From positions 96,001-160,000 of the IMG/VR virus record IMGVR_UViG_3300018018_000001: a stretch of 64,000 nt of DNA. The stretch is one strand, 5' to 3'. The notes below the pieces were generated by a model, which was not told the origin of the DNA, ran no database searches, and saw only the letters and a list, made by a program, of their open reading frames with translations. Shown one piece after another: positions 30,510 through 37,884 of this stretch. Made by a program: the position numbers and the translations under genes. This stretch comes from a virus. Each line of letters opens with the position of its first letter. The first letter of the stretch is position 1.

Positions 30510-31469
30510 GATAGTTAGAGAGGGAATTATGAAAATAAGATGGGGAATTCAAATTAGGGATAAGGGACAGGTGGTTAGTATAAATCAATTCTTTTTGGAT
30601 ATCCCTGATGAAGAATTAGCAGTTTGTGAGACTACAGAGGAAAAGACTTCTTTGATTGAGTATTATGTAAATAAAGAATTTGAATGTAATTCCAATACTT
30701 TTTGGGAAGAAGTATGAATGTCATTAATACCATAAATGTCTATCCCCTTCTTGGATTATTGATACTGAGTGGTCTGTTAATCATCTATGGGATAGCCAAG
30801 ATAATAACCTATTTCATTAATAGGAGGTAACTGTGTCAAGAGCATTGGTCTACAATAATGCTTCGTGTCTTAAATGTGATTGCATAGAGAAAAGAATGGT
30901 CAAGATTGGTGCTTTCATCATGTGTAACAAATGCTTTGCGGAGGAATTTATAACCTCTGATCCTGTCTGCCAAGAGCGTAAATTATATCTCAAATGGCTA
31001 GAGGTCTACAAAAATAAAATAGAGGAGGAAGAGAGGGGAAGGTCATGAAAATCAACGGGAAGATTACTCTTTTGTGTGAAGGGGATAGTGTAAAACTTGA
31101 ATTGCATGATGATGATTCCAGCATAACCTTTGTTAGGGTTGAGCTTACTACTAAACAGTTTACCCAAGCTTTGGGCAGACTGGCCCATACTCCATGTAAG
31201 TCAATGGAAGTTAGGGGCCTAGAGCGGGTAGGGACAAAAATGGAAAATAAGGAATTTATTTTTGAGGTTCCTGAGGAATTACCCTATGAGAGAGCAGAAC
31301 GTAACAAGATCCTTATTCCCATTTTGTATAAAATCATTCCTGAAAGTTGGATTGCTGATATGGGTTTCAATTCTCAGAATTCCTTCTTTATGAATAAGGG
31401 GAAAAATTTTGCCAGTACCACAATTAGGAGATGGGTTAAGATCCCCCTACCTGAAAAGGAATAGGGTAA

Positions 31470-31877
31470 ATGATTTTTGAGAAAACTAAAAATTCCTGTT
31501 TGTTCCTGGGGGATTCTATAGAAGTCATGAGGGATAATTTCCCCTCTAATTCCATTGATGGGATAGTTTGTGATCCCCCCTATGGACTAAAATTTATGGG
31601 TAAAGGATGGGATTATGGGATTCCGGGGATTCCCTATTGGACTGAAATACTTAGAGTGGCCAAGCCCGGGGCATACCTTTTAGCCTTTGGGGGAACCCGT
31701 AAGTATCATAGGCTTGCTTGTGCTATAGAGGATGCTGGTTTTGAGATAAGAGACTGTTTAATGTGGGTATATGGGTCTGGATTCCCCAAGTCCATGGACA
31801 TAAGCAAGGCGATTAAAAAGGATATAGAGGACCAATTAAGAACTCAGGGAGTAATAGGAGAAATTCAGTGGAAATAA
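31470..31877 (+). CDS. N6/N4 DNA methyltransferase, N-terminal part
   Basis: GDSIEVM, CDPPYGL, AFGGTR.YHR, GFEIRD, YGSGFPKS. Confidence 0.85.
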   Translation: MIFEKTKNSCLFLGDSIEVMRDNFPSNSIDGIVCDPPYGLKFMGKGWDYGIPGIPYWTEILRVAKPGAYLLAFGGTRKYHRLACAIEDAGFEIRDCLMWVYGSGFPKSMDISKAIKKDIEDQLRTQGVIGEIQWK

Positions 31878-32320
31878 TCTGTGATAATAAGCTTTGCGGA
31901 AAAATTTTTAAATATAAATATGGACTAGCACACTTTAAAAAAAGTTTATCTCATTGTTGCTCAAGAAAATGTCAAAATACTACTCATGGATTGACAGGAA
32001 CTAAATATAAGGAAATTTGGGATCGTACAAAGAGAAGAGCTAAAAAGAACGAAGTTATTTTTACTTTGACTATCTATGATATCCCCCCAATTCCAGAGAG
32101 ATGCCCAATTTTAGGTATTAAAATTGTAGCAAATACGAAAGCGGGACCAATTGATTCCAGCCCTTCAATAGATAGAATTATACCTTCTTTTGGATATATT
32201 CCTGGAAATGTCAGAATCATAAGTAATAGAGCTAATAGAATACGTTCTGATGCTACTTCTAAAGAATTACATTTACTTGCAGAGGATCTTGAAAGGATAG
32301 AATGTCAATATTTAAAGTAA
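31868..32320 (+). mobile_element. HNH-like homing endonuclease ORF inserted in the methyltransferase gene
   Basis: CPILG...SPSIDRIIP..GY..GNV.IIS..AN; N-terminal CxxxxC...CCSRKC. Confidence 0.75.
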
Positions 32321-33360
32321 CTATTTTTGGAAAAGATTATGAAATTAAGCAAGATTCAGATGGTAAGTTTATAATGCCTGAGGAATTAAGACAGGAAGGA
32401 AAAGGTACTGGGCTGAAGCCAGGATGGGAACCTATCATCCTTGCCCGTAAGCCTGTGGAAGGGACGGTAGCGGAGAATATCCTCAAGTGGGGAACAGGAG
32501 GATTGAATATTGATGCTTGTCGAATTTCGGGAGAAACACCCTCTGTAGAGAGAAGGAAAAATAAGGCACCAGGGGAAAGTATTGGATCAACTGGATGGAT
32601 AACCCCAGCTAGACCAGAATCTTATAATGAACAAAGACCTGGAGAACAATTAGGACGTTTCCCTGCCAATTTACTTCTTGACTGTATTTGTAATGAGGTA
32701 ATTGAGACTGAAGAGATAAGGGTAGAGGGTAGGACAATCAGGACTCACAATAAAATCTATGGGGGTGGGAAGGGAACAAATGTAGGGGATGACCCCGGCC
32801 ACAAAATAAATAATAAGGTTTTGATTCATACCAATCCCGATTGCCCTTGTTATATGGTGGATAAACAAGGTTATGAAATGGGAGTCCATAATGCTGGCCA
32901 TGAAAGACATGGTATGAGAGATATAACAGGAGAAACTAAAGGAATATTTCCTGCCCATGGAAAGGGTGGTCATAGATTTGGGGATTCAGGTGGTGCCTCT
33001 AGGTTTTTCTACAGTTCCAAGTCCAGTAGGACAGAGAGGAATCAGGGAACAGAGGGTCTTTATTGGAAAAAGGCCGATAAATCGTTTATTAGGATTGAGG
33101 TAGGGGAATATGAGGGGTTAAGGGACGATTGTAGGGCCAGGGGCAACGTACACCCCACTGTTAAGCCAATTGGCCTCTGCCGATACCTCTGCCGATTGAT
33201 TATCCCTCCTGGGGGCATTATTTTGGACCCTTTCATGGGATCTGGGTCTACAGGGGTAGCCGCAGTCCAAGAAGGATTCAAGTTTGAGGGAATTGATAAT
33301 GATCCTGTGAGTTTCGAGATTTCTAAGGCCCGTATGCATTTTTTTGAAGAAAAGGTGTAA
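32302..33360 (+). CDS. N6/N4 DNA methyltransferase, C-terminal part
   Basis: GTGLKPGWEPIILARKP, GRFPAN, SRFFY, HPTVKP, ILDPFMGSGSTG. Confidence 0.85.
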   Translation: MSIFKVTIFGKDYEIKQDSDGKFIMPEELRQEGKGTGLKPGWEPIILARKPVEGTVAENILKWGTGGLNIDACRISGETPSVERRKNKAPGESIGSTGWITPARPESYNEQRPGEQLGRFPANLLLDCICNEVIETEEIRVEGRTIRTHNKIYGGGKGTNVGDDPGHKINNKVLIHTNPDCPCYMVDKQGYEMGVHNAGHERHGMRDITGETKGIFPAHGKGGHRFGDSGGASRFFYSSKSSRTERNQGTEGLYWKKADKSFIRIEVGEYEGLRDDCRARGNVHPTVKPIGLCRYLCRLIIPPGGIILDPFMGSGSTGVAAVQEGFKFEGIDNDPVSFEISKARMHFFEEKV

Positions 33361-33387
33361 TAGTAAGACCACTTTGGTGTTATTATA
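33354..33387 (+). promoter_or_regulatory. Class II promoter-like motif, copy 2
   Basis: GGTGTAATAGTAAGACCACTTTGGTGTTATTATA upstream of the sbcDC operon. Confidence 0.8.
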
Positions 33388-33418
33388 TAGGGTAGACTAA
33401 AAAATTAAGGGAGGATTT

Positions 33419-33616
33419 ATGAAGACCATTTACAAAGTAGTGCCGATGGAAACAGATGGATCAGTTCTGGATACTGAGAAATTCTTTAATGAATTCGGTG
33501 CCACTGGGTGGGAATTGCAGCATATAAAGACAGATCGGACAGATGAAAAGGGCAAGCCGATTGAGGATCTTTGCGTATTTATGAAACGTGTCAAAACAGA
33601 GGAAAAGAAAGCCTAA
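33419..33616 (+). CDS. DUF4177-like small protein
   Basis: YKVV...LNxxGxxGWEL-type pattern (FNEFGATGWEL) and FMKR end. Confidence 0.6.
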   Translation: MKTIYKVVPMETDGSVLDTEKFFNEFGATGWELQHIKTDRTDEKGKPIEDLCVFMKRVKTEEKKA

Positions 33617-34629
33617 TGAAAATACTTGCATATGCCGACCAACATTTCAGAGAGTTTGGTTCTTTTGCTCCTTGGAACCGGGTAGACTCCAACGGCCTAA
33701 CTCCTGAACTTAATAACTTAATCAAGGGTTGCCGTTTTGTGGCTAATATGATTGCCGAATTGCAACCAGACATGGTTGTAAACCTGGGAGATATAATTAA
33801 TAACCAAGAAACTGTGAGCGTGAAAACTTTGCATGGTATTCATCTTGGCCTGAAAATGATTAATAAAGCATGCGGGAAAACTCCCCATTATTGTATTCCA
33901 GGCCAACACGATTGCCTTAGCGAAACTCAAGGCATATATTCAATTAGCCCTTTGGTAGGATACTTTACCGACATTTTTACTGAGGTCATGCATGTAATCA
34001 TGAAGGATGGTAGGACAGTAGCTTTCATTCCTTACATGTCTGATCCAGAAAAGATGTATAAGACTTTAGTTTCTTTGCCCTCAGAAATCAAGCTTGTCTT
34101 TTGCCACCATGATTTTGCTGGAGCTAAATATGAAAATGGGCATGAATCAGAATCAGCAACCTCTTCTGATTTCCCATTTACGATAATCGCAGGGGATATT
34201 CATTTGCCCCAATCAGTGGGATCTGTAATCTATGCAGGATCTTTAGTCCAAAACAAGTTTCAGCAGTACAAGCTTAATGATAATGGTGTTCTTCTTTATG
34301 ATACTGAAACTAGGCTCTATAATCGGTTCCAAAATACAATGAGCAAACACTACGTTGTGGTTAATGACCTGGAAAGCCTGGGAAACCTTGATCCTGATAA
34401 AGCCATTCTGAAGGTGGTTTCAGATATTCCCAAAGAGGAAATAGAAAAGATTCTCTCAAAGTATGAATATGTATATTTCCCTCACAAGACCAAAGAGGAA
34501 GGTGATGGTGAGCGGTCGTATTCAGAATTGAATGTGGAGAATCCGGTAGAAGCCCTGCGGAATTTTATTTCTCAGGATAAACCTGAAGCCCTTGAAACAT
34601 TTAATAAGATAGTAAGAAAGGAGAAGTAA
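33616..34629 (+). CDS. sbcD: SbcD/Mre11 (gp47-like) nuclease
   Basis: ADQH, NLGD, GQHD, CHHD, GDIH phosphoesterase motifs; TAATG coupling. Confidence 0.88.
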   Translation: MKILAYADQHFREFGSFAPWNRVDSNGLTPELNNLIKGCRFVANMIAELQPDMVVNLGDIINNQETVSVKTLHGIHLGLKMINKACGKTPHYCIPGQHDCLSETQGIYSISPLVGYFTDIFTEVMHVIMKDGRTVAFIPYMSDPEKMYKTLVSLPSEIKLVFCHHDFAGAKYENGHESESATSSDFPFTIIAGDIHLPQSVGSVIYAGSLVQNKFQQYKLNDNGVLLYDTETRLYNRFQNTMSKHYVVVNDLESLGNLDPDKAILKVVSDIPKEEIEKILSKYEYVYFPHKTKEEGDGERSYSELNVENPVEALRNFISQDKPEALETFNKIVRKEK

Positions 34630-37320: not shown

Positions 37321-37857
37321 ATGCCAAAAAAAGGGGCTCAGACAGGAAATCAGTTTGAAAGGGATATTGCCAGAAAATTGGGGGAGGCAATCTATAAGGA
37401 TAAGGATGCTATTTGGAGGACACACGGTAGCGGTGGTTGGAAGAGGGCAAAAGATAATAAGAGTGGGATTCATCCAGGAGATCTTTATCCAGTAAAACAG
37501 GTTCCCTTCCCCTTCGAGTTTGTGGTAGAATGCAAAGACCGAAGAGGGTGGTCCCTGGATGACTTCATGAATCTTAACAAAAAGAATAAGATTCTTTCAT
37601 GGTGGGAAAAGCTGCTAAATGATATTCAACTTGCCGGGGAACAATACCTATCCCATTATCCAGTGATCATTATAACCAAGCCCTATTTTGCTGAATTAGC
37701 TATCCTTTCTCTGAATGAACACCAGTATCCGTTTGATAATTTAAGTTTTCATCATATGCGCTTTGATCGTTTTATTATTATGTTTTTCAATGACTTTTGC
37801 AATTTCTTAGAAAAAAGATACAAAGAAAAATTTACTCCAACTGAAGAAAAGGTGTAA
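37321..37857 (+). CDS. Holliday junction resolvase (Hjc-type PD-(D/E)xK)
   Basis: G..FER.IA..L, SGG, GDL, VECK. Confidence 0.8.
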   Translation: MPKKGAQTGNQFERDIARKLGEAIYKDKDAIWRTHGSGGWKRAKDNKSGIHPGDLYPVKQVPFPFEFVVECKDRRGWSLDDFMNLNKKNKILSWWEKLLNDIQLAGEQYLSHYPVIIITKPYFAELAILSLNEHQYPFDNLSFHHMRFDRFIIMFFNDFCNFLEKRYKEKFTPTEEKV

Positions 37858-37884
37858 TAGTAAAGGCACTTTGGTGTTATTATA
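37851..37884 (+). promoter_or_regulatory. Class II promoter-like motif, copy 3
   Basis: Identical to copy 1; upstream of the SSB/recA operon. Confidence 0.8.

Follow-up and report, generated by a model that had tools for sequence, protein, structure and literature searches.

How a DNA methyltransferase can persist in a phage whose methyltransferase gene is interrupted by the gene of a nuclease is the question raised by this locus, as the two remaining pieces could be the debris of an insertion, the parts of a spliced product or an enzyme working in two chains. The locus lies in the window, that is, the whole stretch of 64,000 nucleotides analysed here (positions 96,001 to 160,000 of the IMG/VR record IMGVR_UViG_3300018018_000001), and the window belongs to a virus record of 181.6 kb that is complete and has terminal repeats. 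A sequence-only reading had described it as a methyltransferase split in two by an overlapping HNH-like open reading frame (ORF), with neither intron nor intein, with both halves seemingly intact and bearing apparently new terminal sequences at the break, possibly an assembly interface, by analogy with the mobE-split nrdA gene of phage Aeh1.

Organisation of the locus and place of the break

The locus (31470-33360) comprises three ORFs on the + strand, each in a different frame. The first (31470-31877, 135 aa) encodes the N-terminal half of the methyltransferase (N-half), running from motif IV DPPY to GFPKS and then into a conserved tail of 27 aa (31794-31874, MDISKAIKKDIEDQLRTQGVIGEIQWK). It is followed by a free-standing HNH-type nuclease ORF (31868-32320, 150 aa, GTG start) and by the C-terminal half (C-half; 32302-33360, 352 aa), which begins with a conserved head of 34 aa (32302-32403, MSIFKVTIFGKDYEIKQDSDGKFIMPEELRQEGK) and continues with GTGLKP..EPI..ARKP, a variable target-recognition region, HPTVKP and the SAM motif DPFMGSGS. 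The N-half and the HNH ORF overlap by 10 nt at junction 1 (31868-31877, GTGGAAATAA), read as W-K-stop in the frame of the N-half and as M-E-I in that of the HNH ORF, and, from the ORF coordinates, the 3' end of the HNH ORF and the start of the C-half overlap by 19 nt at junction 2 (32302-32320). Shine-Dalgarno-like motifs read from the sequence precede both internal starts: AGGAG (31856-31860), 7 nt upstream of the HNH GTG, and AAGGA (32293-32297), within the HNH ORF and 4 nt upstream of the C-half ATG. The ORFs make up a single translationally coupled unit, in which the N-half stop and the HNH start share 10 nt and the C-half begins within the 3' end of the HNH ORF. RNA folding at the HNH start yields no mobE-like hairpin over the HNH ribosome-binding site stronger than in shuffled sequence (z=0.69).

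The end of the methyltransferase operon carries a 38-nt promoter-like repeat (33349-33386, + strand, GAAAAGGTGTAATAGTAAGACCACTTTGGTGTTATTAT) that overlaps the C-half stop codon; a second copy, with 3 mismatches, is located at 37846-37883, the chance expectation being 0. The last residues of the C-half (EKV) are encoded within the apparent extended -10 promoter of this element.

Regarding family membership, the N-half matches positions 1-89 of the PF01555 (N6_N4_Mtase) profile (E 1e-5) and positions 121-237 of the phrog_67 DNA methyltransferase (E 1e-27), and the C-half matches positions 139-219 of PF01555 (E 1.5e-14) and 227-343 of phrog_67; no other PF01555 match exists anywhere in the 181.6-kb genome. 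With these matches, the three frames and the overlaps of 10 and 19 nt, the splitting of one methyltransferase by the HNH-like ORF, as first proposed, is borne out. DPPY occupies residues 35-38 of the N-half, D35 and P37 being invariant in the alignment of N-half homologues, and the SAM-binding motif I (DPFMGSGST) follows the target-recognition region in the C-half, with G313 and G315 invariant in the C-half alignment. The split gene, with its DPPY, is a beta-class N6/N4 orphan phage DNA methyltransferase gene, probably of N6-adenine specificity.

Uninterrupted single-gene alleles occur at the loci L001-L003, L007 and L008 and in many P-series matches; intact homologues are known in the deposited phages vir555, Pontimonas phiPsal1 and Pseudomonas PP9W2, as well as in the IMG/VR contigs L007 and L008. 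The N-half shares 55-63% identity with the N-terminal portions of intact phage methyltransferases, and the C-half is 43-46% identical to intact methyltransferases of 450-560 aa over 91% of its length. A tblastn search with both halves retrieves hundreds of Mycobacterium and Arthrobacter phage genes named 'DNA methylase', and the nearest solved relative of the intact homologue in L007 is CcrM (6pbd, 8.8e-24). When the insertion is mapped by alignment with the intact genes of L001, L002, L003, L007 and L008, as the sequence-only reading had recommended, GFPKSxDxSKA and GWGTALKP are seen to flank the break, which is thus placed in a variable linker, one that differs in length among intact homologues and sometimes contains extra domains. 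Modelled alone, the C-half reaches a mean pLDDT of 61, with the GTGLKP..ARKP segment below 50, as expected because it is only half a domain.

Additional in-frame insertions are seen directly after DPPYG in methyltransferases of the same family (L043:888-1397, L045:546-1184 and L003), that of L045 being a zinc-ribbon-like segment (CxxC...CxC). This position may be a second insertion hotspot in the methyltransferase gene.

Recurrence of the triad and behaviour of the cassette

The triad of N-half, HNH gene and C-half is not confined to the window. Through the genomic context of short N-half-like proteins and of close HNH relatives, the same triad was located in 15 distinct contigs with GC contents of 0.33-0.65, namely the window, L011, L014, L043, L045, L046, L050, L051, L052, L053, L054, L108, L110, L111 and L112; many uncultured, mutually unrelated phages carry the module. 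No description of such a split methyltransferase was found in the literature searched. In 15 of 15 triads, junction 1 has the form RTGGAARTRR with an overlap of exactly 10 nt, giving W-K-stop in one frame and M-E-I or M-E-V in the other, and the C-half starts with M..F.V...G..F.I.Q.xDG.F..P. Junction 2, in the relatives read, varies between a gap of 1 nt and overlaps of at most 29 nt.

For junction 1, programmed frameshifting was also weighed but discarded, there being no slippery heptamer and every copy having its own start codon.

The terminal sequences that had been noticed at the break, and suspected to be new, prove to be real conserved peptides. The search for short N-half-like proteins gave thousands of matches, and from the 120 matches listed and the loci at least 28 distinct N-half tails from other contigs share the consensus GFPKSlnigKa...k.iE..Lr.QGv.g.I.WK followed by a stop codon. 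The split form ends in ..K.IE.QLR.QGV.GEI.WK and a stop, compared to SKAIDKAAGAEREVVG... in the intact clade. On the other side of the HNH gene, 18 distinct C-half heads from other contigs align to the consensus m..fkv...g.ef.i.Qd.DG.Fi.Pe. The conserved residues of tail and head are encoded by varying synonymous codons, and the N-half stop can be TAA, TGA or TAG; since synonymous codons vary, conservation acts on the peptides and not on an RNA or DNA signal. In the lone C-half model, a beta hairpin (E2-8, E11-17) is predicted for the head, residues 1-30 having pLDDT 77-87. A regex scan of 240 homologues gave no intact methyltransferase with a fused tail-head linker.

Two short N-half-like proteins, P0020 and P0022, have tail-like linkers (…AALAEKGYTDVTWSTDHE and …TLESQGVAYQTGWWNATTYIQP, respectively) with different endings, possibly as ancestral or variant forms of the tail.

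Purifying selection is seen on each of the three ORFs: in comparisons between triads, the N-half, HNH and C-half genes all show saturated dS together with dN of 0.23-0.66, and their dN/dS, where computable, is 0.10-0.55.

In Mantel tests on the 11 complete triads, the HNH protein is correlated with the head (r=0.57, p=0.0003) and the tail with the head (r=0.46, p=0.0007), whereas no correlation is found of the HNH protein with the N-core (r=0.01) or with the C-body (r=-0.02), nor of the head with the C-body to which it is itself fused (r=0.03). In the N-core tree, whose resolution is poor (104 columns), split and intact forms are intermingled, and the AU test rejects the grouping of all split forms in one clade (p=0.018). 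A common topology for the HNH and C-half trees is likewise rejected (AU p=0.003 and 2.7e-7), a result that counts as supportive only, the groups having been picked after the trees were seen. The history of the HNH gene is independent of that of the host methyltransferase gene, which amounts to horizontal spread. Because the block of tail, HNH gene and head co-varies internally and independently of the methyltransferase bodies, it behaves as one mobile cassette moving between methyltransferase backbones. This pattern fits homing with short co-conversion tracts, and the recombination of the cassette also fits the within-gene recombination that has been reported in this methyltransferase family (PMC9957025).

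Explanations of the interrupted gene

The explanation in which we place good confidence is a homing-endonuclease 'genes-in-pieces' DNA methyltransferase, with the HNH gene seated in a variable surface linker. Since the triad and the conserved peptides at the break recur in many unrelated phages, the split methyltransferase is probably still in use. As judged from the topology of class-I methyltransferases, strands beta4-6 with the catalytic DPPY would come from the N-half, whereas beta7, the target-recognition region and the SAM-binding strands beta1-3 would come from the C-half, and the two would re-associate non-covalently into one Rossmann fold. The tail, an amphipathic helix plus a strand ending in W-K, and the head, a beta hairpin plus a strand, may help to clamp the halves. 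Meanwhile, the HNH protein would cut uninterrupted methyltransferase alleles of co-infecting phages, and repair from the occupied allele would then copy the cassette in.

A more tentative proposal, conceivable but on balance doubtful, is that tail and head form a portable pair of docking peptides carried on the endonuclease cassette, holding together the halves of any methyltransferase that is invaded. If true, such a pair would be a third way, besides introns and inteins, for homing endonucleases to reside inside a useful gene without destroying it, and it might be reusable as a natural split-protein complementation tag.

Regarding the nuclease, the HNH ORF matches phrog_3322 (endonuclease, 8e-27), phrog_1035 (endonuclease VII, 6e-15) and phrog_3118 (HNH endonuclease, 4e-6), with no match in Pfam or NCBIfam. 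It combines an N-terminal CxxC...CxxxC zinc ribbon, weakly resembling eL24/TRASH (E 0.08), with a putative C-terminal nuclease domain (SIDRI..GY..GNVRIIS.RANR). Because the nuclease motif is D-R..N..N, compared to the canonical D-H..N..N/H, the cleavage activity of the protein is only presumed from the conservation of the family. Its AlphaFold model (pLDDT 83.7) has as best fold match the HNH restriction endonuclease PacI (3ldy; probability 0.98, E 7e-3, TM only 0.41).

This structural match with a restriction enzyme favours a different explanation, a domesticated three-part system in which the HNH protein is a working partner of the methyltransferase, e.g., a restriction-like nuclease blocked by methylation and directed against host or competing phage DNA. 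In the same direction, the full-length HNH subtype with the CxxC...CxxxC ribbon is found only beside methyltransferase halves, except for the more distant copy in L020, and all 15 canonical triads have an intact HNH gene, on which purifying selection acts. Nevertheless, such a partnership is unlikely, as among the 30,215 cluster representatives (E<=1e-3) of the wider nuclease family other architectures prevail, in other contexts with no methyltransferase nearby, the HNH tree conflicts with the methyltransferase trees and one locus, L109, retains the split methyltransferase without the HNH gene. Moreover, a gene within a gene is the signature of a homing-endonuclease insertion, and this methyltransferase family is already known as a host of inteins and endonuclease insertions (PMC9957025).

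The HNH lineage moves, because copies are present at other sites: that of L020 (39% identical) is free-standing, upstream of a DNA polymerase A gene, and that of L044 (L044:1821-5428, 66% identical) is at a different site of a different methyltransferase. None of ten longer HNH-family proteins examined has a methyltransferase domain, and the deposited phage genomes (50,697 records) contain no full-length relative of the HNH gene; none of them carries the module. In L044, the upstream methyltransferase piece ends in ...ALKPAWESLVVGKKP and a stop, and the downstream piece (MIIITLARKPL...) begins ~2.1 kb later, past several unrelated ORFs; the ARKP motif stands on both sides, and a LAGLIDADG-like ORF lies immediately upstream on the opposite strand.

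Returning to the split enzyme itself, L109 (GC 0.26) lacks the HNH gene, and both its halves are intact, with tail and head kept, separated by only 131 nt; L112, which is syntenic with L109, carries the full HNH gene. The split has outlived the endonuclease in L109, which argues that the two-piece methyltransferase works. The gap of L109 holds a 24-codon ORF (L109:2893-2967, MAIVYRHIRLDKNEPFYIGIGKEI and a stop) starting in the same 10-nt overlap (ATGGCAATAG). Its resemblance to the first GIY-YIG motif is not significant (phrog_314, E 0.25), and the ORF may be what is left of another endonuclease once seated at this junction.

That the methyltransferase was simply broken by a selfish insertion, leaving halves without function, is very improbable. 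The gene is interrupted, and orphan phage methyltransferases are dispensable in many phages, both of which would suit a pseudogene. In addition, the C-half of L052 has a frame change (L052:3158-3164), being either a decaying copy or an assembly error, so some copies of the triad may be decaying. However, in 15 contigs with GC contents of 0.33-0.65 the halves are full-length and complete in their motifs, dN/dS lies clearly below 1 with dS saturated, tail and head are preserved through synonymous codon changes, the ORFs have matched ribosome-binding sites and overlaps, and L109 keeps both halves after the loss of the HNH gene. The description of both halves as intact holds.

Another kind of truncation or split may be represented by L016 (L016:3501-4546) and L017, where an N-half-like ORF of 118 aa with a different ending (GFPKSMDISKAIDILFKI and a stop) is followed by an unrelated 215-aa ORF, with no C-half within 3.5 kb.

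Phage homing endonuclease genes often reside in group I introns or inteins, which would lend some credit to hidden splicing, at the RNA or protein level, restoring one methyltransferase chain. Fractured genes with split inteins do exist (PMC2677866), but such splicing is barely credible here, in line with what had been read from the letters, as Rfam gives no intron family at E<=10 (31000-34000) nor, in the three relatives L011, L014 and L016, at E<=1, the HNH ORF leaves only ~90 nt of other sequence between the homology blocks, conservation of the junction segments is at the level of peptides and not of RNA, and an intein (N-terminal C/S, C-terminal HN plus C/S/T, at least ~130 aa) is excluded because of reading frames and size, the three ORFs being in three different frames and tail and head, ~60 aa together, being too small and having neither a C/S/T nucleophile nor an HN motif.

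The split methyltransferase among known systems

Homing-endonuclease 'genes-in-pieces' are the setting in which the preferred explanation has to be placed. To our knowledge, endonuclease-fractured genes without an intron or intein amount to a few cases only (Aeh1 nrdA, some gp43 polymerases and a putative sbcD). These earlier fractured genes look like isolated accidents, whereas here the same fracture is maintained and spread across many phage lineages. The methyltransferase as host gene, the wide distribution and the junction peptides belonging to the mobile cassette are new, and the cost-mitigation strategy of free-standing homing endonucleases becomes directly testable. As a warning for annotation, 'truncated' methylase genes of ~130 aa in phage metagenomes would often be half of a working pair.

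M.AquI and M.EcoHK31I are natural two-subunit DNA methyltransferases. By engineering, M.HhaI and M.SssI have also been turned into split enzymes (PMC3439449, PMC6298699). In all of them the methyltransferase fold is rebuilt from two polypeptides, as proposed here; however, they are C5-cytosine enzymes split at other points, and neither an intervening endonuclease gene nor a mobile cassette accompanies them. The phage enzyme would be a natural two-piece beta-class DNA methyltransferase, for study or as a tool.

Among insertions in related genes, Gosselin et al. (2023, PMC9957025) described an actinophage methylase family with an intein, an in-frame LAGLIDADG endonuclease and a 'ShiLan' domain, which probably belongs, as far as the sequences indicate, to the same broad methyltransferase family as that of the window. 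Unlike in the window, these insertions are in frame and leave a single polypeptide, and neither an HNH insertion nor a split gene is described in that paper. A similar gene order is that of the fractured genes in which a free-standing endonuclease gene separates halves that carry split inteins, found mostly in phage metagenomes by Dassa et al. (2009, PMC2677866). As in the triad, a half gene, an endonuclease gene and a half gene follow one another, the endonuclease overlaps the downstream half (by 6-69 bp in their loci) and control elements arrive with the endonuclease. Unlike those loci, the triad has no intein blocks, so its halves would stay separate; in addition, the endonucleases of Dassa et al. 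are GIY-YIG or Vsr-like, not HNH, and the eight enzyme types that they report do not include methyltransferases.

The ribonucleotide reductase of Aeromonas phage Aeh1, nrdA-a / mobE / nrdA-b, is the 'genes-in-pieces' case named as such (Friedrich et al. 2007; Gibb & Edgell 2007; both as cited through PMC2677866), and the analogy drawn in the sequence-only reading is apt. As far as Aeh1 is outlined there, in both systems a coding gene with neither intron nor intein is occupied by a free-standing gene of HNH type, here that of a putative homing endonuclease, all three genes belong to one operon, the 3' end of the endonuclease gene overlaps the downstream half and the halves act together in trans, which for the methyltransferase is an expectation only. 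Compared to that outline, the methyltransferase locus has no hairpin over the HNH ribosome-binding site, and the function of its split enzyme is putative. The host gene is here a DNA methyltransferase, the arrangement is present in many divergent phages and, unlike in Aeh1 as so described, the junction peptides are conserved and co-vary with the endonuclease.
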